DNA of 56,125 bases, filler included, from Stramenopiles sp. TOSAG23-6 (lineage: Eukaryota): the NCBI GenBank assembly GCA_900128565.1. It is 2 parts of 2 records of this genome, joined end to end, with 100 filler letters (N's around TTAATTAATTAA, not from the genome) between each part and the next. Parts side by side here need not be neighbours in the genome. Positions count along the whole stretch, not along the records: positions 1 to 28,350 come from LT635978.1; 1 more part is not named here. One strand, 5' to 3'. A model generated the notes under the pieces. That model was not told the DNA's origin and made no database searches. It saw only the letters and a list, made by a program, of their open reading frames with translations. Every line of letters begins with the position of its first letter. Within the stretch, counting starts at the first letter, position 1. This document shows, in pieces, positions 1-56,125 of this stretch. Position numbers and translations under genes: made by a program.

Positions 1-56
1 TTAGGTACGGAATTTCGTATGAAAAAAACAAAAAAAAATTCATCACGAAATTGTAC
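1..56 (-). other. Partial repeat-family intron (donor GT at 56; truncated by window edge)
   Basis: Minus strand reads GAT|GTAC...TTTTCATACGAAATTCCGTACCTAA, matching the family core. Confidence 0.7.
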
Positions 57-3000
57 ATCATATATTTTCAGAGCCTCATTTAGAATTGTTCTTTTGAGAT
101 CTATATCGCCATTGCAATGATGATCAGTAAGTAAAAGATCAGGATCTATTCTAATATCATTTGATGACCAATTTGGAAACGACATTACCAAAAATAATTT
201 GCGTTTATCTAAAACTTGTTGAGCGATACTTTGAGATGCACGAACAGGTTTATTCCTGAGCTTTTCTTTCCCATTGACGAGTTCGCCTTGTTGCTTCATA
301 TAGCGAGGTCGATATTTGATAAATTCATCAATATCTGAAATTTCTTTCTCTAATCGTTCAATGCTTTTTCGAGTCCCATGTTTTGGTGCATCTAACGCTT
401 CACAGTAAATTTGCACGGCTTGTTGTAAATATTTGGATATTGTAGATTGGTTTTCATTTGCACTACAACGCAAATCACTCAGCGCTTCGGCCAAATTAGA
501 GGCTCTCCCAAAAATACAATCACATTTAACAATATCACATAGATAGTCTACACAGTCACTCACCCAAGTATCATCAAAAGTAATATGTTGCTTTCTCTCT
601 TTTGTACCACTACAAGACTGTATAAACAAACCTTTTATACGGTTAATTATACTATTATCCACACTATTTTGAACTGGAGTTGTTCCATTATAATCCAAAG
701 GAGGGCGAGTGTTTATTATACGTGTTAACTTTTCATTGCCACAAACCCAAAAGAGATCTCCATCATAATCACCACCAGACATTTTATGCGCCTCGGAATA
801 TTCACCACGGACTGAAAAAACTAAACGTCCTACTCTATCTTTTGAACAGATTTCCTTGAGTTCATCGGGTACTACAGCTTTTAACTTACGTATATCGCCA
901 GGCCACATACAAGGATTCCGAGTGATCAAAACATCACCTTCTAAGTAACATCCTTCGCCATCACAAATAAAGACTTCTCCTGGTTGAAGGACTTGTTCTA
1001 TTGTTGGATCAGTGACACCGATAAAGTAGTAACTTTTAGGTATCTTGATTTTTAGACGACTAATTTGATCAATTAATGGAAGAATAATCAATTTCTTCCA
1101 TATGTATCACAAAAAAATATTTCGAAAATTTCAGTTTTTTTGTTAGGTACAACATTTCATACGAAAAAAAAAATAAATTCAAAATTAAAATGATGAAAAC
1201 GTACTGTAATTGTAGAAATGGATCGGAAAGTGATTGACCTGCCTGTATCATATCATTTAAAAGTGTAGGAGAACGACTAGAGATTGGATCAATTGTATCG
1301 CCTACATGATATTGACGAAATGCAAATCTCAGCATTTCTTGACGAAAATTTGGATTATTCAAAGAATTTGAACATAGAGATGAGTTTGATCTTTGTTGTT
1401 CTGACTCATTGTTGTATGATTCTTTACTCGGTATCATCGAACGAATGATTTCCATTTCTTTTTCATACAAGTCTAGTAAAAACGCAACAGCATTCGATCC
1501 TCCCAAAGCACAAAGCTGTAATGCAAATTGCTGGTTAAGTTTTGCTGGAGTTCCTCTATATGTACGAGATGAAGTGATAACTTCCACTTGACCTTTAGTT
1601 TCTGGATTTTGAAAGCGATGAGATGGGCTGCATTTAATCATGGATTTACGAAGTACGATTACTGTATTCTTGATAACATTGTCAGATGCAGAATGTTTAC
1701 GAAGAATTTGACGCAAATACTCGCGAGATACAACTTGAAGGGTTCCCTTTGCCAATCCTTTGTCGGAATGAATTCTCACCTGAAATACCGCAGGCTGTCT
1801 TTCCATATTAATACATGTAGGAGTGGGTGAAGATTCGGAACCTTTGAAAACATTTGTCGGAAATAAAAATGCGAAATCTTCAGCAACAAAACCAGTTCCA
1901 TCTGTCATGTTTACATGATGATGATACACATCATCCATAACATAAACATCGCCATTTTGTAATGATGGGCCGCGGGCTGTCTTTGAAAAACCCAGTTGTA
2001 GTCTTGCATTAAATTTAGCTATAGACAGAGAAGCCACGTCACCAATCCAACCTCGAACATCATCCACTGTTACATTACAAGTATTATATGCAAGGAATTC
2101 TGCAAATAATATCGCTTCTAATCCTGTTTTATTTCGATTTGTAACTTTGCGTACAAATAACAAAGAATATCTTACATTATATAAAGCTCTTTTCATATCT
2201 TTGCAAGTCACGCAAAATAATTCATTATCAATGTCAGAAAGAGACAATTTTAATTGTGATATGAATATATCCTTACATTTAGACTGGCGTGGGATATCTA
2301 TAGCAATATGAAGAAATCTTGATTTGCCAAATTCTCTTTCGAGTACACCCATTCCATTATCGTCTGCACACATGTATTGTGAAAAAATATTTCAAAAAAA
2401 ACGAAAAAAAATAAATTCGAAATTCAAAAAAAAATAAAACATACACTCCAAATGAAACATCAAATAAACCTTTTTTGTGACCTTTCACGAAAACAAACTC
2501 TCCATTTTGTGGTAAATTTTCAAAAACGATTTTCTCATTGGTACATTCAGTGTATTCATATTCATCAGCGTATTCTCCAGATATTTTACTATTTGCACTA
2601 CTATAATCATCATAATTTTCATCAATATCATCGCCATCAGTAGTATTACTTTCAGAACAAAAATCATCATAATTTTCATCACCATCAGTAGTATTACTTT
2701 CAGAACGAAACTCCAAACTTTTCTGATGGTCCTTATACCGTAAACAATTGTCACAATTATTGCAGCGCTCATAAGTATTTCCATTTTCTCCATTGAAATA
2801 CCTCCGAAAAGCAACTTGGCGACACGTAATTTTGTCACAACAATATGCATGACACTTTTCGATTTCAATGCGTCGTCTCTGTTTTACTATTTCAGTGATT
2901 TTGTTTGAAAATCCTGTCGTAATAGATCGCAATAGATTTTGCTGATCTCGATGAAACAGAACAAGGCATTGGGCAGGTTTCCTATCACGACCTGCACGGC

Positions 3001-4244
3001 CAGCTTGTTGATATAAATGTAATAATGACTTTGGCAAAGCAGCATGAAGCACCCAACGCACATTCTGATTATTAACACCCATACCAAATGCTTCAGTTGC
3101 ACACATTATAATTGGCCATTTACCAGGGTTGGAACAACCCTCAGACCACTTTTTATGTAAGTAAGTCTTGTCCCTTGATGTTCTAATACCACCATGATAG
3201 TAAGTTGCAATGCCTTCGCCAAATTTCAAATTAATATGACGACAAAGTGATTCACATTCTTTCTTGGTAATTGTATAAACAATACCTGGCTTTCCATTAT
3301 TCTTTTTTATGAAGTTTATGACACGAGATAATGTATTTGGGTGTGAATGTATTTTCGAAAAATATTTCAAAAAAAAATTGTTAGGTACAAAATTTCGTAC
3401 GAACAAAAATGGAATTTGAAAAAAAATAAAACATACATGGCCTTGGTTCCTACTATTCCATTCACTCAATTCTTCACAAGCAAAAAAAAGATTTTGTCTG
3501 CCACCAATGTTTTCTCTTATCATCGTGTAGGTGTTAAAATCATCACTACCAAATAAATCATTCGCAATAGTTTTCTGAACAAAAATAGTAGCTGTCGCAG
3601 TCAAAGCAAGCAAACTAATCGATGGAAACATTCTAAGCCACTTATGTAAGTCTTTATAGTTTGGTGATAAATCCTCACCCCAAGTTGAAATACAATGTGC
3701 TTCATCTACAACAACCCGTGAAAGCTTGCCTCTATCATACAATTTTTGAAGGATACATTGGCCTAAAAACAATTGAGATTTTTCACAAACAAAAGACTGA
3801 ACAGTAACGTATAAAAGTCGACAAGTTCCGTTTAATACATCTAATTTGGTCTGTTCATATTCCTTTGAAGAAATATCTGAACGTAGGCACCGTGCATTGA
3901 ACAGTTTCTTCAGCTTCTCTGGCATTTTGTTTATTTGTAACATTTGATCATAAATCAATGATAGAGTGGGTACAATAACAACAGTAAGGCCATCATTCTG
4001 TTTGAAAATGGATTCATATTGTATTTCTACGACGTATTGTTGATTTAATTGCTTCTAGCTGTAGCGCCCGAAAACTCTTAAAAGAAAACAAATTAAAGAG
4101 TAAAGTTGACAGTTTTTCATCCAGTGAGATTCTGTCTCCAGTTTTCCTTCCTCTTCCTTTGCTTTTGGCTGCCTTTATTTGGCGAGTCTTTTGTCTCTTG
4201 CGGGCCTCATTTCGAGCAATCTCAAGTTTTGATAGTGCAGTCAT
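57..4244 (-). CDS. RecQ-family helicase fused to eukaryotic RNA-dependent RNA polymerase (RDR/QDE-1 family); multi-exon, C-terminus runs off the window
   Basis: Exons ~4244-3437, 3346-2445, 2371-1205, 1101-57. RecQ motifs: FRALQLEAI, VIVPTLSLIYDQ, VVDEAHCISTWG, FGMGVN, QQAGRAGRD, CR...CNNCDNC Zn site. RdRP motifs: TDGTG, QVR..KG and, in my manual translation of 1101-57, GVTDP, LQPGEVF, TRNPCMWPGD, SGGDYDGDLFWV (DYDGD at 770-756), ALDAPKHG. Frameshift and missing Walker A near 4014-4030. Confidence 0.8.
1102..1204 (-). other. Non-canonical GT-AT intron (103 bp)
   Basis: GTACGTTTT...TCGTATGAAATGTTGTACCTAAC...GATACAT. Removal gives FLQLQ-WKKLIILPLIDQISRLKIKIPKSYYFIGVTDP, in frame with the RdRP catalytic exon; the next AG is out of frame. 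Confidence 0.85.
2372..2444 (-). other. Non-canonical GT-AT intron (73 bp, lacks the TACCTAAC core); joins RecQ and RdRP parts
   Basis: GTATGTTTT...GAAATATTTTTTCACAATACAT. Removal gives FDVSFGV-CADDNG in frame. Confidence 0.7.
3347..3436 (-). other. Non-canonical GT-AT intron (90 bp, in-frame, stop-free)
   Basis: Full family consensus; translated in the ORF track as VCFIFFQ...VRNFVPNN...SKIH inside RecQ. Confidence 0.8.
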
Positions 4245-4662: not shown

Positions 4663-6751
4663 ATGTCGCGGAATGTGTTAGATAAATGGAGATTAGGTGG
4701 TCGTCCAACAGGAGTGAAGCCTTACGTCTACTGTTTTCGAACTAAAAGCTTGAACAGTTATAAGCACGGTGAGTATTGTTGGGATAAACATGGTCAGGGA
4801 GTTGTATCAGCAATTGATCAGAGAAACAGTATAGTTGGAGTTTCGAATTATGCTGCCTTAAATTCCGGTCATTTTGAATTACGAAAGAGTGATGATGCTT
4901 CAAAATACCACATTAAGCAACATCTTCAAGATGGTACAGTTGTGCGCTGTGTGGACACTATTAACAATGTTATAATTGTCCAGCGAAATCGAAACAAATC
5001 ACATAAAAATAGATATAACTTAGTAGAGGACGAGCAACAAAATGTAAAAATAGAAAGAAATCGAAACAAATCACATAAAAATAGATATAACTTACTAGAG
5101 GAACAAAATGTAAAGGTAGAAAAAAGTACTGTAGAAATTGCTCCAAAACGAAGAAGGAGAAGGAAGAAGAAAAAGAAACACGATCCTGGAGGTCTAAAAG
5201 CGTTGAAAAAAGAAATGAAACAAATGATGGGAATATCATCTGTAAAACCGAAAAAAGATAATTCTATATTTGAATCTCAAAAGGAAACAACACAGCAACT
5301 ACATCTAAATTCACAAGAAAAAAAGATTATTCGTGTTTTGAACACAGTATCTATATTTGAAGGTATGCTATTAGAAACGTTAGCTGAGATGGCCCGAGAA
5401 ATGGAAGAAATGACATTCCAAGATGGTTACTCTATCATCAAACAAGGTGCAGAAAATGATAATGAATTTTATGTTTTGATAAAAGGTTCCGCTAATGTAT
5501 TAATTAAACGTGTTGCTGTTGCTGCACTGAAAGCACCAACGTTCTTTGGTGAACTGGCGCTCTTAAATGATGCTCCAAGAAATGCCACAATAAAATCTCG
5601 TGGAACAACTACATGCCTAATCCTTCGCCGTGCTGCGTTTAACCGATTTGTTAAAGAAAATACGAAACGTTGTACGTTTTTATCATGAATTTTAATTTTA
5701 TTTTTTTTCATACGCAATTTTGTACCTAACGAATTTCAGTTTTTTTTAATATTGTTTCACAATATATGCATGGAAAATGCAAATATGGAAAGAGAAGAAA
5801 AAGTTTTTCATGCTGCAAATGCTAATCTTATTACAGCCACAGAATATCTTGATGAATACGACACAAATACACGAAATACACGAGACGCTGGGATATTGAA
5901 AGTGAAAGATGCAATTAGTATTTTACGGAATGCTATAAAAATGACCTCTGAAAATAGAGTAAGGGGCAATCCTTTGCAATTATTCCACATATATATGTAT
6001 GTTTTATTTTTTTTCAAATTCGAATTATTTTTCGTACGAAATTTCGTACCTAACGAATTTTTTTTGAAATATTTTTCCAAAATACATACAACTTGGTAGA
6101 GGTCATCTTAATTTAGAAAATGAAGATGAAGCTCAAAGAGCTTTGATGGAAGCCACTCGAATTATGAAAATAAATGATCTTGATCATAAAAATCCTCGAA
6201 ATGAAATTTTATTAAGAGAGGTATTCGGAAATGCTTTAGGGTGGTTTGGTCATATCAGAGCAGCGAATATTCATTTTATAAAGGGAAAACGATTGGCAAA
6301 GGAGATTGGAGATCGACAACAGGAGCTTCAATTTGATATGTTTTACAAAGAAATCCTTTTAAGAAATGGACGATTTGATGAAGCTATGGAACTAACAGTG
6401 CTATTAAGAAAAGAAAAGTTTATTGGAAGAAAACAGAGAACTTTAAAAAAAGAAAAAGAAAAACCACCAGATTATCTACGAAAGAGTACACATAATACAT
6501 ACCATCTTTTCTCGGATGATGCTTTACGATGGATAGTACACAAAAGAGTGTATCCTAACCCTGATTCTACTTCATCTATTGCAAAGATTGGAACCATGAA
6601 TAGATCGGAATTACTAAATTTAATTATTGCATTTGACGATAGCGTAACATTCCATGAAGCAATGACATTAAAATGGCAACACCATATGCGTAGTATGAAT
6701 AGTGATAGTCTCGTAGCTCCACCTTTTTGCAAACGATTTCCCAAGATTTAA
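4663..6751 (+). CDS. Cyclic-nucleotide-binding (cNMP) domain protein with helical/TPR-like C-terminal region; 3 exons (4663-5671, 5768-5996, 6088-6751)
   Basis: IIKQG..FYVLIKG..FFGELALLNDAPRNATI cNMP motif; three ORFs join in frame after removing two family introns. Confidence 0.75.
5672..5767 (+). other. Non-canonical GT-AT intron (96 bp)
   Basis: GTACGTTTT...TGTACCTAAC...CACAATATAT. Removal gives TKR-C-MENAN; the internal CAG at 5737-5739 is out of frame. Confidence 0.8.
5997..6087 (+). other. Family intron, GT-AT (91 bp); an in-frame AG alternative exists at 6099
   Basis: Near-perfect consensus copy; removal gives FHIY-I-QLGRGH. Confidence 0.75.
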
Positions 6752-14815: not shown

Positions 14816-15244
14816 CATCGATCTTGATCTGAATTTTTATTTTCTACCCAGTGGGTATTTAGTATTAATACCTGTGGGGTACTGTTCGGCAAGCGTTTCA
14901 TATATCTCTATCTAAAACAAAACAGTACAATATCAAAATATCAAAATATCAATATAAATATTCTAAAACAAAAAATTACAATAATTTGCTCGGAATAAAA
15001 ATCCATAAATGTTAATTTATTATACAATCACAAGACTATAGTTCAAACAAAGTCCTAATCTACATCTTATTTATAATATCATTATGATATTATCGAAAAT
15101 AATAAATAAAAAAAACATTCTTTTTATCAGTAAATATTTTTTCTTAGAATGAGAGAATCCAAATAAAAATAACTAGAATCAAAGAAATTTTTAAAACAAG
15201 ACTCCAATCCTAAAAAAATATACAAACATCACTCTCATTATCAG

Positions 15245-16603
15245 TTATAACCGATAATTTGCTGCTAAAGCTGCCAACAATAGAACAGCAAGAGGCACTA
15301 GGTATATATGTTGATGAATTACATGGGTAATGCGTCCTAGAGCAGTCGGAGGTAATTGGAAGTCAGTGTGAATGTTACTGAATCGTTGACGAATTTCCTC
15401 TGGAATTGATAGTTGGTTGTTGTTCAAGTTCAAAGTCCAAAGTTTTCTTAGTTGACCAATTTCCGTTGGAATTGAACCAGATAGGTTGTTACAATTCAAG
15501 TACAATTCTTTGAGATTTGTTAGTTTACCAATTGTAGCAGGAGGTATTGAGCCAGTTAGTTCATTGTTGTTCAAATGCAATTCTTCGAGATTTGTTAGTT
15601 TACCAATTTCACTCGGAATTGAACCAGATAGTTTGTTGCTGTACAACCACAATGTTTGGAGATTTGATAGTTGACCAATTTCTTTTGGTATTGGACCAGT
15701 TAGGTTGTTCATATACAAGTACAATTTTTCGAGATTTGTTAGTTGACCAATTTCTTTTGGAATTGGACCAGTTAGTTTGTTATCAGACAAGCTCAAATCT
15801 ACGAGCTTTGTTAGTTGACCAATTTCTTTTGGAATTGGACCAGATAGTTGGTTTCTTCCCAACTTCAATTCTTCAAGATTTGTTAGTTGACCAATTTCCT
15901 TTGGAACTGAACCAGATAATTTGTTGCTTTGCAAGAGTAATTTAGTAACACTTCCTTCAGTACACGTAACTCCCCCCCATTCACAAATATCTGCATCTGT
16001 TTTCCAATTTGTCTTACGCCTCCAACCATCTCCATTTGTACTATCATACAATATAGTTAGAGCTTCTTTTTCCAATAAATTACGATGTTTCACTTCTACA
16101 CGGCTTAACCATTCGGCACAGGTTTCGGTTTCATTCCTTGTAAGGGTGGTTGTTTCTACGTTGAGGCGAACAGAACTTTCAAAAAACATTCTGAAAATTC
16201 CTTTAACACGGTCATACCACTTCCATAAAGATTCATTTGGGGTTTGTTTAGTAAGTTCTTTCATTCGGTCTTCAGTGGTTTTTCCTCCGAAATTTTCGAC
16301 AACTTTCATTAGTAAGTAATCTGCTTCATCCTTAACCTTTTTACTGGTATGCTGATGTATCACAGCATTTGCAGTGGACAGAATCATTCTTTCAGATGGA
16401 GTAAGAAATTCACTCAGAGGGCGCATAGCAGAGTCTGTGAATTTTTGCGCACCGACGTCTTCATTTGCGAGACGATTAGCAGCACGTGTTGGATTAGTGG
16501 GAGAGGCGTTTCCCTCACGGAGGAGATGTTGTGAAGCATTGACAAGAGTAATCAACATGAATAACGACAACATAGAAGTGTATCGAGTGAGTAAGATTGT
16601 CAT
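15245..16603 (-). CDS. Secreted/membrane-anchored LRR protein, plant-specific 24-aa LRR type, 8 repeats
   Basis: Hydrophobic N-terminus, N-cap ALTILYDSTNG..W..CEWGGVTC, LxxLxLxxNxLSGxIPxEIGQLxx repeats, hydrophobic C-terminus. Confidence 0.85.
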   Translation of the reverse strand: MTILLTRYTSMLSLFMLITLVNASQHLLREGNASPTNPTRAANRLANEDVGAQKFTDSAMRPLSEFLTPSERMILSTANAVIHQHTSKKVKDEADYLLMKVVENFGGKTTEDRMKELTKQTPNESLWKWYDRVKGIFRMFFESSVRLNVETTTLTRNETETCAEWLSRVEVKHRNLLEKEALTILYDSTNGDGWRRKTNWKTDADICEWGGVTCTEGSVTKLLLQSNKLSGSVPKEIGQLTNLEELKLGRNQLSGPIPKEIGQLTKLVDLSLSDNKLTGPIPKEIGQLTNLEKLYLYMNNLTGPIPKEIGQLSNLQTLWLYSNKLSGSIPSEIGKLTNLEELHLNNNELTGSIPPATIGKLTNLKELYLNCNNLSGSIPTEIGQLRKLWTLNLNNNQLSIPEEIRQRFSNIHTDFQLPPTALGRITHVIHQHIYLVPLAVLLLAALAANYRL

Positions 16604-17046
16604 GATATGTTTTTCCAATCAAAAGTAATACCTTTATGTTTGTACTAATTAGTTACACGAGAACTTCGCATCGATCATGAAAGAGTCAGCGTCGACGTCA
16701 GCTGACCAAATTTAACACGAAATCTCATAAATTCCTACTATCAAAATATCAATCTAAAAATTCTAAAACAAAAAAAATTACAATAATTTGCTCGGAATAA
16801 AAATCCATAAATGTTAATTTATTATACAATCACAAGACTATAGTTCAAACAAAGTCCTAATCTACATCTTATTTATAATATCATTATGATATTATCGAAA
16901 ATAATAAATAAAAAAAACATTCTTTTTATCAGTAAATATTTTTTCTTAGAATGAGAGAATCCAAATAAAAATAACTAGAATCAAAGAAATTTTTAAAACA
17001 AGACTCCAATCCTAAAAAAATATACAAACATCACTCTCATTATCAG

Positions 17047-18639
17047 TTATAACCGATAATTTGCTGCTAAAGCTGCCAACAATAGAACAGCAAGAGGCAC
17101 TAGGTATGGACGTTCATCTATATGTTCATATATTACACGGCCAATACGTCCTAGAGCAATCGGAAGTTCGTGGAAGTCAGTCTCAATGTTACTGAATCGT
17201 TGACGAATTTCCTTTGGAATTAATAGTTGGTTGTGATTCAAGGTCAAAAGATCGAGATTTGTTAGTTTACAAATTTCCGTTGGTATTGAACCAGATAGTT
17301 GGTTATGTGACAGTTGTAACCAATCTAGATTTGATAGTTGGCCAATTTCTTTTGGAATTGAACCAGATAGATTGTTGTTGTGCAAGTTCAAATCTTCAAG
17401 ATTTGTTAGTTGACCAATTTCCATTGGAATTGAACCCGATAGCTTGTTGTTGTACAATTCCAAAGTTTTGAGATTTGATAGTTGACCAATTTCGGTTGGA
17501 ATTGAACCAGATAGTTGGTTACGATACAAGTACAATGCTTTGAGATTTGTTAGTTGACCAATTTCCGTTGGAATTGGACTAGATAGTTTGTTTTCGTTCA
17601 ACGACAATCTTTCGAGATTTCTTAGTTGACCAATTTCCTTTGGAATTGAACCAGTTAGTTTGTTTTCGTGCAACAACAATTTTTCGAGCTTTGTTAGTTG
17701 ACCAATTTCTTTTGGTATTGAACCAGATAGTTTGTTGCGATTCAAGCGCAATTCTTTGAGCTTTGTTAGTTTACCAATTTGATTTGGAATTGGACCAGTT
17801 AGTTTGTTATCAAACAAGTACAATGCTTTGAGATTTGTTAGTTGACCAATTTCTTTTGGTATTGAACCAGTTAGTTCGTTGTTTTCCATGTTCAATTTTT
17901 TCAGATTTGTTAGTTGAAAAATTTCAGTTGGTATTGAACCAGATAGTTGGTTGCTAAACAAGTACAATTCAGTAACGCTTCCATTAATACACGCAACTCC
18001 CTCCCATATACAAATATCTGCATCTGTCTTCCAATTTGTCTTACGCCTCCAACCATCTCCATTTGTACTATCATACAATAAAGTTAGAGCTTCTTTTTCC
18101 AATAACTTACGATGAATACTTTCTACACGTTGTAGCCATTTGTCACAGGTTTCGTTTTCTTTTTTTGCGAGGGTGGTTGTTTTTTCTTTGAAGCGTTCCA
18201 AACTTTCAGAAAACATTCTGTGAATGCTTTTCACACGGTAGAGCCACTTCAATAAAGGTTCATCTTTGGTTTGTTTGGTAAGTTCTTTCATTTGAATTTC
18301 CACTTCTTCAGTGGTGTTTCCTCCGAATTTTTCGACAACTTTCATTAGTAAGTAATCTGCTTCATCCTTGACCTTTTTACTGGTATGCTGATGTATCACA
18401 GCATTTGTAGTGGACAGAATCATTCTTTCAGATGGAGTAAGAAATTCACTCAGAGGGCGCATAGCAGAGTCTGTGAATTTTTGCGCACCGACGTCTTCAT
18501 TTGCGAGACGATTAGCAGCACGTGTTGGATTAGTGGGAGAGGCGTTTCCCTCACGGAGGAGATGTTGTGAAGCATTGACAAGAGTAATCAACATGAATAA
18601 CGACAACATAGAAGTGTATCGAGTGAGTAAGATTGTCAT
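17047..18639 (-). CDS. Secreted/membrane-anchored LRR protein paralogue, 11 repeats
   Basis: First ~110 aa nearly identical to the 15245-16603 gene; more and different LRR units. Confidence 0.85.
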   Translation of the reverse strand: MTILLTRYTSMLSLFMLITLVNASQHLLREGNASPTNPTRAANRLANEDVGAQKFTDSAMRPLSEFLTPSERMILSTTNAVIHQHTSKKVKDEADYLLMKVVEKFGGNTTEEVEIQMKELTKQTKDEPLLKWLYRVKSIHRMFSESLERFKEKTTTLAKKENETCDKWLQRVESIHRKLLEKEALTLLYDSTNGDGWRRKTNWKTDADICIWEGVACINGSVTELYLFSNQLSGSIPTEIFQLTNLKKLNMENNELTGSIPKEIGQLTNLKALYLFDNKLTGPIPNQIGKLTKLKELRLNRNKLSGSIPKEIGQLTKLEKLLLHENKLTGSIPKEIGQLRNLERLSLNENKLSSPIPTEIGQLTNLKALYLYRNQLSGSIPTEIGQLSNLKTLELYNNKLSGSIPMEIGQLTNLEDLNLHNNNLSGSIPKEIGQLSNLDWLQLSHNQLSGSIPTEICKLTNLDLLTLNHNQLLIPKEIRQRFSNIETDFHELPIALGRIGRVIYEHIDERPYLVPLAVLLLAALAANYRL

Positions 18640-19147
18640 GATATGTTTTTCCAATCAAAAGTAATACCTTTATGTTTGTACTAATTAGTTACACGAGTGT
18701 GCGCATTGCAGGCTCGCTGAATTGATTTGAACGAAATTTAAAGTCAGCTGACCTTTTAGGTAAGAAATTTTCTACCAAATCAAAAATCAAAGGCTAACTA
18801 GAATCGGATCTGAAAGTTGTAACAGTTACTGCTTAGAATAACCCTAGGTACCAGTACTGCGCCACTCAATACAATAATGCCTCTCGAAGGAGTCGTTATA
18901 TTATTATTATTCTGAATTGCAGTTTTCTAAAAATGTATACAGTGTTCTACGTACAAAAAAGATACGTAGAACGCTGAATGTATAGTAATATGTAAAGCAT
19001 TAAAAGAAATATAATACATCTTAAATTAAATTCGTTTATTTAACTGTACACTGTACACATTGTAAAAGTATATAGATCTAAATTGTACCTATCATAATTA
19101 TTAAGTTCTCACATCCTTCTAGAATAAATTATAAACATCAAAGATCA

Positions 19148-22100
19148 TTAATGTTGGCTTGACTTTGAAATTTCTCGGAGTCTTCGTCTTGCTCCCGACG
19201 GTAGGCGCAAAGCTCCACCTCTACTTTCAACAGGAAGCATTGTTAAAGCAAGAACTGCTGGCGGACCCGCTGATGCAACTAAACGGCGCCAGTTTCCATA
19301 GGGCATCTCACGTTGCAGCGGTGGAGCATCTTTACCACGCGCTACTTCAATCTCATCTAGAAGACTAGAGAGAAGTTTTGGAGGGATTCCAAAGTGAGCA
19401 GCATCAAAGTGAATAATTTTGGTTTTAGTATCATCCCGGATACCATTTTTATTACTTTCAGTCGAATCACTCAAAACATTTGATGCCTCAGCCACCAAAG
19501 CAGCAGCGGCAATATTTACAGGTAAGACCCCAACACTGCGCTTTTTAGAGGTCAACCCAGCGGGGCTTGCACCTGTTACCTCTACAGCAGATAGCAAGAG
19601 TGAGAGCCAATCACGACGCTCTGAACGCGGTGTATAGTGAGAAATATTTTCATTGCATTCAAAAGAAGAATTCATATTTTGTTTGGATGAAACTGGAGGA
19701 CCAATCAGCCCAAGACGGACAATAACAAGTTGTATTTTCCCACGAGCTGTATTTTGGAAAAATATTTGAAAAAAAACGTTAGGTACAAAATTTCGTACGA
19801 AAAAAATATCGAATTTGAAAAAAAATAAAACATACATGCTGCAGCAGCAAAGAGATGTTCAGCAACCATTTTACTACGGGCGTATCCACTACCTAAAGAC
19901 ATTGCACATGATGATGGAACCAATGAGTCAACTGGGTCTCTCCAGTCTGCTACTTTCGCTGCCGCGGCAACTGGAATCACACTCATAGTAGATACAAATA
20001 CAACAAGTGGTTTTGTATACTTGCTAATGTAATTGTTGTTCTTATTTACATTGATTGCTCGCGAGGAACTTGGAGATATGAGGTCAACTAGAGCTGCAAC
20101 AGAGGCAACATTAGTTGCACGAAGTGAATTATAGGGTCGAGCATGATCAACTGATGCACCGCTATGTAAAACAGCGCCAAAGTGCATTGCCTGAATGGTT
20201 GAGAAGTCAGATGTTGAAAGACCAAGTTGAGGTTTTGACAAATCATATTCAAACACAAGCAAACGACCAGACGTTTTTGCTTCATTCGTTGCACAGCTTT
20301 TACAAATACGATCAAGTGGGCTACGCGTCAAAACTACTATGGTTTTCCATGAATTATTCAAAATTGCATCAAGAAGATGAGGACCAAGGAATCCAGTGGC
20401 TCCAGTGAGAAGTATACAGGGTGATTTTACTTCATTATTGCTTACACATACTTTTTCTACTGGAACCTTTTGAAGAGCTTGCCAAGCAACATCGAAAGAA
20501 ACCTCCTCTTTCCAAAATATGGTAGATTCCGTCTTGGTAGATTCCGTCTTGGGTATGCACTGCGCATCGATGTTATCAAAGTTTGACTGCTCAATTGCTT
20601 GCACAGTATCATTCTTGAAAGAATGGATGTAAAACTGCGCCTTTCTTCGAAGATCCCAGGGTAAGAGGGCATATATATCCCTCACGGAAATCCTTTCAAT
20701 AGACATTGAGGTTGAATTTCTTATATATTGTTGATCCCAAGCAGCTACAAGTAAAGTTGCAGCAATACTGTCACCACCTAATAATGTCCACCATTCTCCA
20801 GGATCTAATTCCTTGGAATTTACCAAGGCTTCAGGTAATAACTTTATTGCCTCTTTATCAGTTTCTGCTACTAAAAACGCTAATATTCTTTCGACTACAT
20901 CATTACTACCATGATCTATATTGTTACTAATGCTTGAGTTCACTGTTGACGTTGTCGTTGTAGTAATGATACCTGGGTGTCGACTTGCAATAACATTTCG
21001 CCTGAGCTTTCCATGAGAAGAACAACAGCCACTTGTCTCATCCCACGGACCACTGTCAATCGAAACACGATCAGGACACTCCCAACTTCTTAGTCCAGCT
21101 TCAGATGCTGCTAATCTCATTTCTCTAATAATTTTACGAGCTACATCAGCTGTTGTTTTTACCGGGACCTCGTTTTGTTTTACTGTAGAAATGCTCGTAT
21201 TTGCAACAATGACAATAGCAATTGGTTTCACATCACCAGGTCTTGCAATTAGCACACAACTTTCGATAGAGGGACAGTGCTCTTCATATACCCATTCCAC
21301 AGTCTGCGGTGAAAAAAATTCACCATTATCTAGTTTGACGGTAAAGCTAACACGTTCACAAACTTCTAGAAGTTTTCGTTCTGGTTCATTCTCATTTCCA
21401 GGGCGAACAATCCAACGACCAAGGTCTCCAGTATGGAACCATCCAGCAGCATCCAATACCACTGCATCGGTGCCTCCATTTTGTAAAGGTTTCTTCACTA
21501 GAATCTCACCTAAATCATCCCGGTATTTGTGTTTTAACAACTTGATATGTACACCTTTCAGTGGAACACCATCGCGTGTAATGCCACCAATTTCAGTCAT
21601 GGCATATCCATTCGAAACAACAGCGTTACCACCGCCTTTACCACCTTTTCCAAAACATTTTCGAAGAAAATCTAATAATGGTGGAGGAACAACTGCACCA
21701 CCAATAGCCACTAGTCGAAGACGAGATCCACCAAGACGCCGAATTATTCCAAAAGCAGTTGTTGTAGCTTTTTCAACAGTTTTACTTTCTTTACATAAAT
21801 TATGTAACTCGATTTCATACCGACGTTGATATAGAGAATAGAAGCGCGGTGCTGCTGAGAGTGTGGTTGGTGCAATAGCAAAGATCTGATCAAGAATATC
21901 TATTTCTCTACACTTATTATCGCTTTTTCTATCACTAGTACCTCTCGGATTTGTTTCACTATTATTAGATATATTACTATTACTATAACACACACCGCGA
22001 GTATTACAAAGGCCAAGACGCCCGCCATGTAGCAACTCACCCCATGACGTTCTACGAGCTAACGCATGAGACAATGGTGCAAATAGTGCAGCACAAGATA

Positions 22101-28350: not shown

Positions 28351-28450
28351 NNNNNNNNNNNNNNNNNNNNNNNNNNNNNNNNNNNNNNNNNNNNTTAATT
28401 AATTAANNNNNNNNNNNNNNNNNNNNNNNNNNNNNNNNNNNNNNNNNNNN
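28351..28450. other. Artificial contig linker / assembly gap
   Basis: 44 N + TTAATTAATTAA (stops in six frames) + 44 N. Confidence 0.9.
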
Positions 28451-28513
28451 TTTTTTTTCGTACGAAATTTTGTACCTAACAAATTTTTTTTGAAATATTT
28501 TTCCAAAATATAT
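28451..28513 (+). other. Partial family intron at contig start (3' end TAT)
   Basis: TCGTACGAAATTTTGTACCTAAC...CCAAAATATAT followed by an open frame continuous with the ankyrin ORF. Confidence 0.75.
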
Positions 28514-35347: not shown

Positions 35348-37302
35348 TTATAAAAAATTAGATTGAGTAACCTTCATAGCCATATTTTTTTCCATCCGAG
35401 CTTTTTTTTTCCCTTTTAAACCTGCTACTTTATCTTCATATGTACCACCGCAGTGTCGTTTGCACAATTTCGTATACTTCTTTGTACGATTATCAGTAAA
35501 ATCTGCATCAACGGTAAAACAATCTTCTTCGGGAGAATGACTCGCATTTTCTATTGATTGTAGCAGCGTTCTGGCCATTGCCGCTTTCACAGAATATCGA
35601 CACCATTGCTTTTCAACAACTTTCCTAATTGATGACAATGCACGTGTACTAATTGTGTGATCAAAATCAAGGTTATCAAAACTACAATCATACAAAAGAA
35701 GAGGCCAGTCTGGTGCCATGTCGTATCCAGGTTTACAAGGGCATTTTGAAATATCTAAAAGTTGTTTAATTATGTATTTTAGAAAAATATTTAAAAAAAA
35801 AAAAAATTGTTAGGTACAAAATTTCGTACGAAAAAAAAATAAATTCGAAATTGAAAAAAAAATAAAACATACATAGAAGGGTTTTCTTGACCACGACCGA
35901 CTAGAAATAGTACCGCAACCATACAACGTACTTGATGCCATAAAAATCCACGTCCACAAATTTCAAATACGAAAACTTCATCAGTATTGTTTTCTTGTAT
36001 TGTTTCATCATTACTTTTCATTTCTTCTTCTTCTAAAATTTTTACTCCGTTTTGGGTTGCTTTAAATATTTTACAGGTGAGAATTTCTCTAACAAAATTG
36101 TGGACATTTACCACATCCATTTTACAAAAGTTACGAAAGTCATGCTGACCAACGAAATACGATGCTGCTTCTTGCATTTGATGAAGATTGAGGGATCTCT
36201 TTGGGAAGAAATATCTATAAGTTCTACTACGACAACTAAATCGTGCATCAAATGGTTGCAATGTTTGAGATTCATTTTTTTCATTTAATTCTTTCAAACG
36301 AAATGTATGTTTTTGTCTTGGAGCTTCGGACCAACCTAAAACTCTAATTTCTAAAGGTAATACATTATTTAGTAGCATTGCGTAGTCATGTTCTTTTTTG
36401 TGCATGTTGAGTTTACTTTCTAATGAACTTGAAGGTATTAAACGAACACTGAGCGTTCTACTTTTGAACTGTTTCTCAAAAACACAAGATTCTGATGCAC
36501 CAACATCTCTCCAAGTTGAGTTTTTCTCGTCCAATATTTGAATGATTGTATCAATCGGTGCAATTCCCATATAGTGATCGATTTTAGTTTCCAAATCTGC
36601 AACAGTTGCATTTTTTGGAAGATGTAGACAGGTTTTTCGGAAACCTCCGAACATTTCAGTTTCCACTTTGACTACAACGTTATCACTATCATCAATAAGA
36701 TCAATTTGTTTAGACTTATACTCCATATATTTAATACCTTCGGCAGCAGACTTTGATGCGGCTTCTGTGAGAACACGGGGAACAAATGCAACACCACGTT
36801 TGAGTTTTGACCGAAGGTTCAAAGCAATAACTTGACCTGATGCACTAACACCTTTATCGGTGCGACCACAACGGGAATACACAGATGATAAACGGTTTTC
36901 AATAAGGCAAGTTTTTTGTAAAGCATCAAATAGTTTTGATTCTACAGTATTATCCGTATCAGATTGAGATGCGAGACCTAAATAATCTTCTCCATTATAC
37001 CAAACTTTAAGAGCAATATGCCGCTGTCTATATTGTGAGAAATCAAATGGTCGACGGATCTTTTTCTTCTTTTTACATTTCACTTTTGCTGTTTTGTTAT
37101 TTACACTAATGGAAGAATGTACAGTTGCTGTAATGACTTTTTTAGTTATTGTAGACAGCCGAAGTTTTTTAAGAGGAGGCTCTTCTAGTTGCACATGAGA
37201 ACCTACGATACGACCGTTAATTTCGATTCTAGGACTTCCACTACGGTATTGCTGTACCAAATCAATCAGTTCCTCTTTTGAAAGGTTATCCAACCCATCC
37301 AT
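35348..37302 (-). CDS. PUS3: tRNA pseudouridine(38/39) synthase, TruA family; exons 37302-35873 and 35771-35348
   Basis: RHIALK, YSRCGRTDKGVSA, FDARFSC..RTYRY, HDFRNFCKMD, FLWHQVRCM, then KPGYDMA..PLLLYDC. Confidence 0.9.
35772..35872 (-). other. Non-canonical GT-AT intron (101 bp)
   Basis: Removal gives GQENPS-I-IKQLLDISKCPCKPGYDMA, the expected PUS3 segment; the next AG is out of frame. Confidence 0.9.
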
Positions 37303-37531
37303 TGTACTGGAAGACAAGATGAATCTCGGGTTTTTGTGATTTCGACACTCAATTGTTCAGTATATTAAAGCTCAAAGTATCACTGCTGAAGTTCGACACT
37401 GACTGACTACTATTTTATTTCGAACACGAAATCTTGTTGCTGCCGCGATATTATTATTGGCCAGTCTTTCGAATTCGCGTTGATATATTTGCATATTTGC
37501 TCTCTCTCTCTGCGCAATAATTGTGTCACTA

Positions 37532-38923
37532 ATGAATTCACCAGAACCAAAGAAGCATAAAAAAACACACCATACCATGCGAAGTTGGGTAATGTATAAA
37601 GCGGAATGCGAATTTCCAATCCAGAATTTGCCATATGGAGTATTTCAGCGAAGCACTGATAGTTGCGGTAAAATAGGTATTGCTATTGGTGACTTAATTC
37701 TTGATCTTGGAGTACTCTCCAGGGTCGGTAAGTTCGCTTCTGCTCCAGTAGGAACGGAAAGTGCTCTTCAAGAATCAACGTTAAATACGTTTATGTCGCT
37801 TGGTAGACCATCGTGGTCATATGTTCGTCAAAAAGTCACAGAATTGTTATCATCTGAGTGCGCGGAATTGCAGGGCGATCAGGCATTGCGTAGTGAAGCT
37901 TTTGTTGCCCAAAGCGAGGTCAAGATGTTGTTACCAACAAGAATTGGCGATTACACCGATTTCTACTCTTCAAAGGAACATGCCAGTAATGTTGGTACAA
38001 TGTTTCGAGGTAAAGAAAATGCACTTCAACCTAATTGGACTCGTATGCCTATCGGATACCATGGACGATCTTCTTCTGTTGTTGTATCTGGCACTCCTTT
38101 CCGTCGTCCCTGTGGTCAGTTACAAAAGGATGCTAAGGATAATAAACAGGGCTCCCGGTATGGTCCTTGTAGGCTAATGGATTTCGAATTAGAAATTGGT
38201 TGCTTTGTGGGTAAAGGAAACGAACTCGGCGTGCCTATCAATATTAATGATGCCCTCGAAGAAAATATATTTGGACTTGTCTTGATGAATGATTGGAGTG
38301 CTCGTGACATACAAAAGTTTGAGTATGTTCCATTGGGTCCTTTTTTGGGAAAAAATTGTATGACTACTATATCGCCATGGATTGTTACTATGGATGCTTT
38401 GAAACCATTCCGCGAGGAAACGTCCGTTGGACTGTCCGGTCAAATTCCCAAGCCTCATAAGTATCTTCGATCAACCGACTACAGAAGTTACAATATTGAT
38501 CTTCATGTTGCTATCTCCAGAAAGGAGTGGTCAAACCCTCACCGTATTACAACATCAAATTTTAAGTCTATGTATTGGACAGTTGAGCAGCAATTGGTAC
38601 ATCACAGTAGTTCTGGCTGTAATATGCAACCAGGAGATCTTTTTGGTTCTGGAACAATCTCGACAACAATGGATGACGGTGAAGGTGCTGAAGTACCACC
38701 TGGTTTAGGTTCTATGTTGGAAATGTGCTGGAAAGGGAAGCGCGAAATAACAGGATTCCCCGATGGTTCTGTACGTAAATTTCTCAAAGACGGTGATGAA
38801 GTAATAATGACAGGTGCATGTAACGGCGATGGATTTCGTGTTGGATTTGGACAATGTTCTGGCGTTGTCCTCCCAGCATTACCACAACTCAAGGAGTTGG
38901 GTGAAGATGGTTATGTTTGTTGA
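37532..38923 (+). CDS. FAH: Fumarylacetoacetase
   Basis: FPIQNLPYG, GDYTDFYSSKEHA, PIGYHGRSSS, DFELE, NDWSARDIQ, PLGPFLGKN, GSGTIS; start may be 37577. Confidence 0.95.
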   Translation: MNSPEPKKHKKTHHTMRSWVMYKAECEFPIQNLPYGVFQRSTDSCGKIGIAIGDLILDLGVLSRVGKFASAPVGTESALQESTLNTFMSLGRPSWSYVRQKVTELLSSECAELQGDQALRSEAFVAQSEVKMLLPTRIGDYTDFYSSKEHASNVGTMFRGKENALQPNWTRMPIGYHGRSSSVVVSGTPFRRPCGQLQKDAKDNKQGSRYGPCRLMDFELEIGCFVGKGNELGVPININDALEENIFGLVLMNDWSARDIQKFEYVPLGPFLGKNCMTTISPWIVTMDALKPFREETSVGLSGQIPKPHKYLRSTDYRSYNIDLHVAISRKEWSNPHRITTSNFKSMYWTVEQQLVHHSSSGCNMQPGDLFGSGTISTTMDDGEGAEVPPGLGSMLEMCWKGKREITGFPDGSVRKFLKDGDEVIMTGACNGDGFRVGFGQCSGVVLPALPQLKELGEDGYVC

Positions 38924-47925: not shown

Positions 47926-49063
47926 ATGATCAAGACGAAATTAGAAACAAAAACAATGGGACCTACCCAAAATGCAATCCAAGAAAAGTATGGCTATAGA
48001 CAATGGTTGTCTAAAAACTATGATTTTGCTAAAAAGCTTGAGGACGGAGCGCGTATGCTAACGTTGTTATGCTCTTCACAACTTGATGAGAGGTCTGGTC
48101 TCCTAGCTGAAGGTGTGTACGCAGTTATAAATACAATAGGAACTTTAAACGACCATATTATATCTCGAGGTGAAACAACAATTGGTAGCAAATCTGCATG
48201 GGCATTGACCCTGATAAGTAATCTTGCTGTAGTTGCTGAAATGCTCTCTGCTAGAAAAGGAAATAAGTCAAAGTGGCGTACAATTACTTATGTCGAGTTG
48301 TTGAAGGCTGCTCTTAGAATTATGATTCTTATACGTAGTGGCTGGGCTACCCAAATAAATGATTCTTTGTACATGCCAATTGACGACGATGTTCAAAGAA
48401 CAAAAGATCAACAATTGTGGTGGAGAGGTCGTCGTAGTGGCTCTTTGATACCACTTCCTTCTGGACTCTCTGCTCACAAATTCAAACAATTGAAGAACAA
48501 AGGAACACTTGTTCGTTCTCCAAATACTCCACGAGGTGTATATTCCAGTATTGGTGAATTACTGTATATAATACGACCTGTAGTTTTCTCATTGATGCGA
48601 TCTAAACAAAATACAAATACAAAGAAAAATATGTTCTGGGCTCCTTTTCTCCTATCCCTTGCTATTGACTTTGCGAGCTATCGTTGTTCAAATGCAGCTG
48701 TGAAATCAGCAGAAAAACGTGATGAAGCAACTACTGTAGGAGGCGGATCAGTACCATCTTTTATTAGTATGGAATTTTCTAGACGAAAACTTTTGTGGTT
48801 ACTTTACGCACTTAGAGAACCTTTCTTCAGTTCTGTCACAAAAAGAGCAACAGACAAAGTTAGCTCTTTGTCAAGTATGTTTTATTTTTTTCAATTTCAA
48901 AATTATTTTTTTTTCGTACGAAATTTCGTACCTAACAAATTCAACAAAAAAAAATATTTTTCACAATATATATTACGTTCCACTTTTTGGTATGTTAGTT
49001 CGTTATATGCTTGATATGTTGTACTATATCCAGCGACATCACTTTTATATCTCTGGCTCATAA
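47926..49063 (+). CDS. PEX16: Peroxisomal membrane biogenesis protein PEX16; exons 47926-48874 and 48972-49063
   Basis: ELLKAALR, GELLYIIRPVV, RRKLLWLLYALREPFF; spliced C-terminus NYVPLFG...QRHHFYISGS*. Confidence 0.85.
48875..48971 (+). other. Non-canonical GT-AT intron (97 bp)
   Basis: Family consensus; removal restores the PEX16 C-terminus; no AG within ~25 nt downstream. Confidence 0.9.
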
Positions 49064-49812: not shown

Positions 49813-50194
49813 TGGTACGCACTTAGTATTGTTACAATCAAGACATTTCGATGATATAATCAATCTCCAATATTATTTATATTATATAAGCTTGGAGTAT
49901 GAAAGAATACTAGCGAAAACACGAAAAATAAATTAAAATTTGACCGATATGAAAAAAATACGCTCATTGCGCGCCAAACGTCGGTCGACTCGATCGATCC
50001 ATCAAAAAAAAAGAAGAAGAAGAAGTGATTGATGTGTGTGTGCCGCTTCGATTGATTCCGATTGATTGCGATTGGTACCAGGTCCCAGGAGCTGTTCTTT
50101 TTTTGAATTATTGATCATTCACAACAGCGACACTGTTCACGACAACGAACAGCAACACGAGTCTGTTCAAGGCAGTAACTGTTTCGAGATAACG

Positions 50195-52156
50195 ATGAAT
50201 ATATCGTTTTTCTCGGACGTTTCCACCACAAGTTACCAAAATCTTTCGGCAGCTTGTGTATTTGACGGCTGCAATCAGTCATCAATAGTATTCGGGAATG
50301 ATCAAGAAAATTCCTTTGATAGTAATTTTAACGCTTCCGCAGAGTTTGGTCGGGGAGAAAAAGAAGAAGAAGTGATTGATGACTCCATTTATCAAGGGAA
50401 GCCCCCCATAGAAATCAAAAGTCCACGTAGTCCACAACTAAATGGTACAAATTTGTTTTTGCCAAGGTCCAAATTGACTGAAAGTATCTTGGAAAGCAAG
50501 TCGCCTGTACATTTGCATCATTCATTTCAAATTTATAGTTCAAGTTTTATTTATTTTATATCCAATGTGTCTAATGAATTTCAAATTTGAAATATTCTTT
50601 TACAATATATGTTCCTATATCTCGAAATGATCAAGATGATATTAGAAATGATGTCAGTGTCCCCGCTACTGCCTGTTCTGACTTCTCTACCCCGAGTAGT
50701 TTTGACGGTTCTAGTGCACCAGGTGGAGGCGTTGATGTGACTTCTCGTAAACATACTGGTGATCAAGATGATATTAGAAATGATGTCAGTGTCCCTGCTA
50801 CTGCCTGTTCCTCCCTCTCTACCCCGAGTAGTTTGATCGGTTCAAGTGCAGCAGGTGGAGGCATTGATGTGACTTCTTGTAAACATACTGGTGGATACAT
50901 TCATGATGACCATACAAACAAAATAACACCCAACAAAAATGTACATTTACGTCATTCATTTCAAATTTATAGTTCAAGTTTTATTTATTTTATATCCAAT
51001 GTGTCTAATGAATTTCAAATTTGAAATATTCTTTTACAATATATGTTCCTATACCTCGAAATGACCAACAAGATGATATCAGAAATGATCTCAGTGTCCC
51101 TGCTACTGCCTGTTCCTCCCTCTCTACCCCGAGCGGTTCAAGTGCAGCAGGTGGAGGCATTGATGTGACTTCTTGTAAACATACTGGTGGATACATTCAT
51201 GATGACCATACAAACAAAATAACACCCAACAAAAATGTACATTTACGTCATTCATTTCAAATTTATAGTTCAAGTTTTATTTATTTTATATCCAATGTGT
51301 CTAATGAATTTCAAATTTCAAATATTCTTTTACAATATATGTTCCTATATCTCGAAATGACCAACAAGATGATATCAGAAATGATGTCAGTGTCCCTGCT
51401 ACTGCCTGTTCTGACTTCTCTACCCTGAGTAGTTTGGTCGGTTCTAGTGCAGCAGGTGGAGGCATTGATGTGATTTCTCGTAAACATACCTGTGGAACTC
51501 GTGGAACTGGTGGTTACATTGCTTGCCCTAAATGGACCACTTCAAAAAAAAGTGCCATATTGGCAAGAGATATTTTGTGTTGTCAAAAAAAACAACAACC
51601 CGATCAAGGTGGTCTTGTCATGCACCGTCATTGCAAAATACAACACTCGAATCTTGGTGGACGAAATTGTTGTTTGAATGCCTTCGACTTTGCAACTGGA
51701 AAATTTCGTACAGTCACAAGGAAGCAGATGCAACTGGAAGGTGCAGGCGACATCAGCATTATTGACATAGCCAAATACGTTAATGAATGTGGAAAGAAGG
51801 TACCCTTTAGATTGCGTACAAGGCCTGGGATGACCTGGGGTTGCCTAATTTCAAAAAAAGAAGGAATATTTGTTGGTCGTAGCTATGTTTATTCTGATAA
51901 ATCTCATCATTACATCGTTTATGATGCCTGGCGCTCGATCATATATATTGGATGTGGTTTTGCAGATGTGATGATCCAGGAAAGTGATCGTGAGGATCCA
52001 AAAGCCTTTGAGAAAAGATTTTCTGATGAATATGGCCTTGGTCTCCAAGTGGAACATTTGTACTGTTTGTATGTCATTGCAAAGCATGCATTCAAAACAA
52101 CATACAACACTCCAGATGACTACAAGCCTAAGTCGAAGAAGCGTAAGCTAATGTAA
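50195..52156 (+). CDS. Internally triplicated protein with C-terminal Cys/His domain (possibly papain-like); exons 50195-50506, 50611-50940, 51045-51236, 51341-52156
   Basis: Four ORFs join in frame via three phase-0 GT-AT introns; DDIRNDVSVPATACS repeats; NCCLNAF...HYIVYDAWR. Confidence 0.65.
50507..50610 (+). other. GT-AT intron (104 bp), divergent family member, copy 1
   Basis: GTACATTT...GTCTAAT...GAAATATTCTTTTACAATATAT; in-frame join. Confidence 0.75.
50941..51044 (+). other. GT-AT intron (104 bp), copy 2
   Basis: Near-identical to copy 1; in-frame join. Confidence 0.75.
51237..51340 (+). other. GT-AT intron (104 bp), copy 3
   Basis: Near-identical to copy 1; in-frame join to ORF 51434-52156. 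Confidence 0.75.
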
Positions 52157-56066: not shown

Positions 56067-56125
56067 GTACGTTTTATTTTTTTTTCAATTTTGAATTTAT
56101 TTTCGTACGAAATTTTGTACCTAAC
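56067..56125 (+). other. Partial family intron at window end
   Basis: GTACGTTTT...TTTCGTACGAAATTTTGTACCTAAC. Confidence 0.8.

Follow-up and report, generated by a model that had tools for sequence, protein, structure and literature searches.

A putative RecQ helicase–RNA-dependent RNA polymerase fusion gene interrupted by an intron-like repeat family in a stramenopile assembly

Introduction

Can a RecQ-type helicase and a cellular RNA-dependent RNA polymerase (RdRP) be encoded as a single polypeptide? The question is raised by a locus of Stramenopiles sp. TOSAG23-6 (GenBank assembly GCA_900128565.1), found in a 56,125-nucleotide (nt) stretch of DNA in which parts of two records of this genome are joined end to end. 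The whole stretch is termed the window, positions count along it, and the locus falls in the part taken from LT635978.1. Running on the minus strand from 4244 to 57, the gene has a RecQ-type helicase core followed by an acidic linker, then a 73-nt element (2372-2444), and after it a cellular RdRP bearing a DYDGD motif. The best reading of this arrangement appears to be one fused gene, and the chance that it is a working gene is put at about even.

Only for a few fungi has it been worked out mechanistically how cells mark repetitive or damaged DNA as a source of small RNAs: QDE-1 is brought to single-stranded DNA by a RecQ helicase together with RPA. In Neurospora crassa, according to those passages of PMC2950127 that deal with quelling and the qiRNA pathway, the participants are the RecQ helicase QDE-3, the RNA- and DNA-dependent RNA polymerase QDE-1, and RPA. 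The same passages state that RPA promotes the synthesis of double-stranded RNA by QDE-1 and that QDE-3 is needed for QDE-1 and RPA to make contact. A first-pass annotation of the window had cited this joint action of QDE-3 and QDE-1 as a precedent, and the source bears it out. The annotation had further proposed a "Rosetta-stone" fusion of the two enzyme types that couples DNA unwinding to the synthesis of silencing RNA.

The helicase and polymerase halves

Following a short exon that begins with ATG, three long open reading frames (ORFs) occupy the minus strand (2357-4054, 1069-2391 and 3-1106). They are separated by elements of 90, 73 and 103 nt, all members of one sequence family. The first-pass annotation had placed a single family intron ahead of the RdRP; this element is present, and two more interrupt the gene, one in each half (Table 1). 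With four removals, each running from GT to a terminal AT, the gene model reads through 1302 codons free of stops in DNA of about 33-35% G+C, AT-rich enough for stops to be frequent. Both halves are on the same strand, separated by 73 nt, with no stop before the intervening element, and removal of 2372-2444 joins open frames of 536 and 433 codons in phase 2.

All Pfam domains of the gene score above their gathering cut-offs, and the RecQ core, zinc-binding region, acidic linker and RDR-type polymerase with DYDGD were recovered where the annotation had located them. In the helicase half, these are DEAD (43.8 bits, 3581-4003), Helicase_C (43.6 bits, 2984-3328) and RecQ_Zn_bind (PF16124; 2741-2902, with 29.1 bits where the cut-off is 25). 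Compared with solved structures, this half matches BLM (3e-43), RECQ1 (1.7e-42), RECQ5 (1e-35), bacterial RecQ (7e-35) and WRN (1e-25). The DEAH box is intact, motifs III to VI align with BLM, and so do the cysteines of the zinc subdomain. Motif 0 (the Q motif) is present at 4133-4023, as found by tblastn with five RecQ relatives. RQC (PF09382) and HRDC (PF00570) gave no Pfam match in the gene at E values up to 0.01; these domains occur in many, not all, RecQ members. Directly after the zinc subdomain comes a low-complexity acidic linker rich in D, E, Y and N, which holds an imperfect 48-nt direct duplication (2599-2703).

The RdRP half is matched by PF05183 (cut-off 23.8) in two pieces, one of 89.3 bits at 1321-2187 and one of 139.7 bits at 216-1070, which together span positions 67-577 of the 582 in the profile. 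The catalytic motif is encoded as GAT TAT GAT GGA GAT and aligns with the relative P0013 and with solved plant RDRs (P numbers denote relatives retrieved here); its coordinates and those of the DEAH box were derived by hand from the sequence and the alignments. When exon 5 was searched with HMMER over 1.84 billion cluster representatives, 1813 matches were obtained, the best being P0013 at 42% identity, on a contig of 1777 nt that is too short to reveal its upstream context. The best-named relatives are plant RDR5-type proteins, proteins labelled "QDE-1", and proteins of Naegleria and basidiomycetes. Among structures, plant RDR chains matched at 2e-14 to 1e-12 and QDE-1 chains at 5e-12; exon 4 alone matched no solved structure.

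The gene does not end at 57, where the first-pass annotation had closed it. Another family element begins at 56, and P0013, the closest RdRP relative, extends about 115 residues beyond the aligned end. Because the window ends inside the element at 1-56, it does not include the end of the RdRP, some 115 codons or more.

Table 1. Parts of the gene and copies of the repeat family, in window coordinates
Feature	Position	Strand	Evidence
Exon 1: ATG (4244-4242), basic N-terminal stretch, RecQ motif 0 (Q motif)	4034..4244	-	ORF list; tblastn of RecQ relatives (4115-4023)
Lesion zone: Walker A codons (about 12) absent, one-base frameshift at about 4023/4024	4018..4033	-	DEAD profile, BLM alignment, tblastn
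Exon 2: RecA-like domain 1, motifs Ia to III, DEAH (3695-3706)	3437..4017	-	PF00270 2.9e-11; BLM and RECQ1 alignments
Putative family intron, 90 nt, GT..AT, phase 0, within helicase core	3347..3436	-	Family alignment, frame test
Exon 3: Helicase_C, zinc-binding subdomain, acidic linker, about 30 more residues to the junction	2445..3346	-	PF00271 3.9e-11; PF16124 1.7e-6
Junction element, 73 nt, phase 2, family intron minus a core of about 31 nt	2372..2444	-	Family alignment, frame test
Exon 4: N-terminal half of RdRP	1205..2371	-	PF05183 3.3e-25, profile 67-308
Putative family intron, 103 nt, GT..AT, phase 2, within RdRP domain	1102..1204	-	Family alignment, frame test
Exon 5: catalytic half of RdRP, DYDGD (756-770)	57..1101	-	PF05183 1.8e-40, profile 333-577; PDB and P0013 alignments
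5′ part of a further family intron; window ends inside	1..56	-	Sequence; P0013 overhang
Example copies of the family	5997-6087 (+), 19747-19835 (-), 35772-35872 (-), 48875-48971 (+), 55557-55655 (+)		Family alignment
Partial copies of the family	1-56, 56067-56125		Window begins and ends inside family copies

A family of intron-like elements

The separators of the gene belong to a family that recurs through the window. Its 23-nt core has 12 matches, with 0 expected (none in 100 shuffles). An automatic scan set borders wrongly and was replaced by hand curation, which yielded 13 complete copies of 73-118 nt. These were anchored on GT, so the presence of a 5′ GT in 13/13 follows from the choice of copies. 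For the frame test, each copy was cut from GT to A[T/G], and the longest ORF entering its 5′ end was compared with the longest leaving its 3′ end. After removal, 12 of the 13 copies left the flanking frames in phase, the junction copy included, where chance would give one in three. Outside this gene, nine of ten did so, and the sole exception among the 13 has short flanks. All 13 copies are in sense orientation relative to the flanking frames. Their lengths include every remainder on division by 3, and therefore the copies must be removed for proteins to be made.

The elements start with GTATGT or GTACGT, and a CCTAA box lies about 35-40 nt before the 3′ end in every copy except the one at the junction (12/13). 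The 3′ end is AT, as ..ACAT or ..ATAT, in 12 copies and AG, at the same position, in one (19747-19835), so that the GT-AG termini of spliceosomal introns occur in 1/13. CAT or TAT stands just upstream of the 5′ end in six of the 13. The exact borders are uncertain, as moving the cut by 6 nt (TA..TA) preserves the frames no less well. From these signals, the family appears intron-like: putative introns with yeast-like 5′ and branch signals and a 3′ end in AT, a combination that gives it importance in its own right.

A full-text literature search turned up no description of introns of this kind. The nearest parallels lie in other lineages, a tunicate and a dinoflagellate, as against the stramenopile-like host here. 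In the sections of PMC13326754 that treat them, introns of Fritillariidae end in YAY and frequently have a 3′ AT, a non-AG end likewise seen here, and the CAT or TAT upstream of six copies recalls their YAY rule. The introner elements of Amoebophrya, as presented in part of PMC7789003, are likewise short and repeated, with a non-AG 3′ end. Unlike both, the present family combines a canonical GTATGT or GTACGT 5′ end with a yeast-like ACCTAAC box. Long terminal inverted repeats are not apparent in it, although no search was aimed at them. Furthermore, Amoebophrya genes are reported at about 54-58% GC, compared with about 34% G+C in the window, and make a poor fit.

Read through in frame, the intron at 3347-3436 yields a Phe-rich peptide that HMMER aligned to the NL.Y block of BLM. 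This match was rejected as a chance one: other family copies yield the same peptide, and the real block lies in exon 2. Such read-through is a trap for gene callers. Elsewhere, an N run at about 28351-28459 (97 N with the TTAATTAATTAA linker) sits inside another family copy.

Helicase–RdRP fusions in other organisms

RdRPs joined to helicases have been described before. PMC4791657, in the part that concerns domain architecture, lists proteins with DEAD-box, helicase-C and RDRP domains in peronosporomycete oomycetes, Dictyostelium (RrpA/B/C), Hydra and Nematostella. Among the 162 RdRP relatives gathered here, the 23 longest were scanned, and eight carry a helicase. In P0073 and P0099, DEAD and Helicase_C are N-terminal; in P0083, P0159 and P0114, the same pair is C-terminal; and in P0098, P0119 and P0049, a C-terminal superfamily 1 (SF1) helicase is found (AAA_11/AAA_12). 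Where named, the bearers of DEAD-type helicases are chytrids and an amoebozoan, and those of the SF1 type are ascomycetes. These cases show that RdRPs have recruited helicases repeatedly.

The fusions in Dictyostelium, oomycetes, Hydra and Nematostella, together with P0073 and P0099, have the order that the fused-gene model would give here, an N-terminal superfamily 2 helicase followed by the RdRP, and a presumed role in small-RNA biogenesis. However, the helicase here is of the RecQ family, as indicated by RecQ_Zn_bind and the match to BLM, unlike the RDR-associated DEAD-box helicases of the known fusions. BLASTP detected no resemblance to the helicases of P0099 and P0073 (E values of 0.9 and 2.2); this pair and the RdRP relatives searched below are the basis on which the Dictyostelium and oomycete fusions are set apart. 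The six relatives with a C-terminal helicase differ further in their reversed order, their other helicase families and their lack of RecQ_Zn_bind. The novelty is thus the helicase family, the principle of a helicase–RdRP fusion being already known, and the gene would add a fourth helicase family to those recruited by RdRPs.

Searches for the same combination elsewhere were negative within their scope. The RecQ half had no match among the 162 RdRP relatives (150 listed of the 1813 matches, plus 12) in phmmer at E values up to 10, and PF05183 occurred in none of the 120 long RecQ relatives listed (of 418 significant). Metagenome contigs queried with the alignment of exon 5 and P0013, and with exon 3 alone, gave no match; the patterns were narrow, and this is weak evidence of absence. 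In the ESM Atlas, exon 4 retrieved only RdRP clusters, none with a RecQ domain. Full-text literature searches produced no paper on a RecQ–RdRP fusion either, in agreement with the first-pass annotation, to which no description of the architecture was known.

One working gene, a dead copy or two genes

Several observations weigh against a single working gene, and the first group concerns the ATPase site of the helicase. The match to the DEAD profile starts no earlier than position 42 of 167, and the BLM alignment begins downstream of motif I. The P-loop regions of seven RecQ relatives, searched by tblastn, matched Walker A (motif I, the P-loop) in no frame of the gene. The alignment of motif 0 ends at 4023 and that of motif Ia starts, in a different frame, at 4024, about 12 residues between the two motifs being unaligned. 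Consequently, exons 1 and 2 share a frame only if 3n+1 bases are skipped, and uninterrupted reading from the ATG at 4244 meets a stop after 77 codons. Skipping 16 nt (4018-4033, GT..AT) formally restores the frame without restoring the P-loop.

Two ways of repairing the lesion were considered and rejected. A mini-intron of 16 or 13 nt would serve formally, yet introns of that size find no support here. A Walker A exon displaced to another part of the window was also sought, and tblastn with the P-loop regions of the same seven relatives gave only chance-level matches outside the gene. The absence of the loop may be an assembly fault; alternatively, the loss could be real, leaving the helicase as a pure targeting domain. 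The coupling to DNA unwinding that the first-pass annotation had proposed is doubtful for this copy as assembled.

The missing loop also invites the explanation that the fusion architecture is real and this copy recently inactivated, one deletion having removed the Walker A codons and shifted the frame near 4023, another the branch-site core of the junction intron, too recently for the open frames to have decayed. Two small deletions would then lie within 1.7 kb, each in a functionally critical element, and with nothing skipped the product would end early, at the 77 codons noted above. Yet the remaining 1302 codons are open in AT-rich DNA, and there has been no loss of DEAH, of motifs III to VI, of the zinc cysteines or of DYDGD, whereas either deletion could equally be a fault of assembly. 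Recent inactivation is thus unlikely, although it is the strongest of the competing explanations.

A second group of observations concerns the junction. Family similarity in the junction copy extends over roughly the first 45 and the last 30 bases, and this copy alone of the 13 lacks the core of about 31 nt containing ACCTAAC. With this branch-site-like core gone, the copy is less sure to be spliced than its relatives are. An in-frame ATG (2371-2373) overlaps the 3′ end of the element, and similarity to RdRPs starts only about 10 residues after the junction. Moreover, the 60 residues before it have no similarity to the N-termini of P0107 and P0045 (E values of 1.4 and 17), and a MAFFT juxtaposition was not significant. 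No domain demonstrably straddles the junction, because the residues that precede it match no RdRP N-terminus.

These features could also be accommodated by two adjacent genes, a RecQ-like one reading through the element to a stop at 2357-2359 and an RdRP gene starting from the ATG at 2371-2373. That ATG stands exactly at the 3′ end of the element and in the RdRP frame, and the lack of the family core and the short distance to the first RdRP similarity suit such a division. The genome is very compact, with spacers of roughly 100-250 nt between the long frames of neighbouring genes, and P0107, the closest long relative, starts with Met and has no helicase. Against this, a terminator and a promoter would both have to fit in 73 nt, and the supposed spacer belongs, in sense orientation, to a family that acts as an intron in 12 of its 13 copies. 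Both frames are open up to the ends of the element and in matching phase, and the RecQ-like protein would end in a hydrophobic read-through tail of 29 residues. Among relatives of the RdRP, those with an initial Met show similarity only after about 65 or more residues, compared with about 15 in a free-standing RdRP here. A G stands directly after four of the 13 copies, so that an ATG there easily arises by chance, and the ATG at the junction has T at -3, where two better-supported starts have G and A, a weak comparison. A scan of the junction for bacterial-type promoters and terminators gave results at shuffle level, with models inapplicable to a eukaryote. Two separate genes are considered somewhat less likely still than recent inactivation.

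The assembly evidently breaks at the intron family, at both window ends and at the N run, and such assembler trouble with the repeat would suit a chimera of two unrelated genes joined across their family introns, a possibility that the first-pass annotation had also named; this is very improbable, as both genes would have to agree in strand and phase, the RecQ gene being without its C-terminus and the RdRP without its N-terminus, and the junction copy is a distinct short variant rather than a generic copy.

A further point counts on the negative side: the relatives and metagenome scans described above revealed no second organism with the same architecture. Sampled words of the stretch were found in an index of DNA runs (77% in X1 and 48% in X2), figures that have no bearing on the junction itself. 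Three metatranscriptome runs held 5-8% of the sampled words, which is no evidence of expression or of the junction.

One fused nuclear gene nevertheless remains the preferred reading. The fusion proposed in the first-pass annotation thus stands as far as the common strand is concerned and the joining of the frames when the family element is removed; the weaker part is the junction copy, which is without the branch-site-like core. That this copy is spliced and that the gene is expressed is what we infer.

A possible single-chain counterpart of QDE-3 and QDE-1

The same two enzyme families meet at this locus as in N. crassa: a RecQ-type helicase whose best scores are with BLM and RECQ1, and a two-barrel RdRP with DYDGD. 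The differences from the fungal pair are several. QDE-3 and QDE-1 are separate proteins with contact through RPA, whereas here they are apparently one chain. The scores point to no specific kinship between the RdRP and QDE-1, plant RDR and QDE-1 structures scoring alike. The helicase lacks RQC, HRDC and, as assembled, the Walker A loop. Finally, the host of the known pair is a fungus, and here it is a stramenopile-like protist.

The following mode of action seems the most likely, each biochemical step in it being one that we infer by analogy. Where loci are single-stranded or repetitive, the RecQ module would bind the DNA, and an ATPase still intact in the living organism would let it unwind the DNA as well; the tethered polymerase would thereby be held on a single-stranded template. 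Aberrant RNA would be made there, and then double-stranded RNA that feeds silencing, the work shared in Neurospora by QDE-3, RPA and QDE-1, which are not joined. Should the loss of Walker A be real, the RecQ part could bind only and not unwind. A bolder proposal, and on balance a doubtful one, is that a marine stramenopile makes a single-chain "aberrant-RNA synthase": a RecQ-derived module that binds or unwinds DNA, covalently linked to an RdRP whose template is single-stranded DNA at repeats or lesions. Under this proposal, the QDE-3/QDE-1 partnership would be either ancient or re-invented outside fungi, with this gene as its Rosetta stone. If the fusion is a natural one, in a lineage so far from fungi, the gene would provide independent genetic evidence that a RecQ–RdRP partnership is functional and widespread, as well as a compact construct for DNA-templated RNA synthesis in vitro.

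Other features of the window

The neighbours of the gene are ordinary cellular genes, which include those for a cNMP-binding protein, leucine-rich-repeat proteins, fumarylacetoacetase, Pex16 and a cation-efflux transporter. The fumarylacetoacetase gene, which is intron-free (37484-38923, +), is the best clue to the identity of the host. Its product has 72% identity to a EukProt coding sequence labelled GSMAST32...; a metagenome protein follows at 69%, and the oomycete and animal proteins listed reach 52-56%. A larvacean host, to which the YAY and 3′ AT introns had first pointed, was rejected on these identities. To judge by this one gene and one label, the host is probably an uncultured marine stramenopile, a reading in keeping with the seawater metagenome labels that most of the indexed runs bear.

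Two cases of local duplication were also seen. A 67-nt segment, GT..ATATAT, occurs in three copies (50544-50610, 50978-51044 and 51274-51340, +) with identical ends and flanks as printed. The copies lie in overlapping open frames (50066-52156), which suggests tandemly repeated exon-intron units in one gene. Additionally, two adjacent leucine-rich-repeat genes (15245-16618 and 17047-18654, -) share identical sequence near 15223 and 17025, and this suggests a recent tandem duplication.

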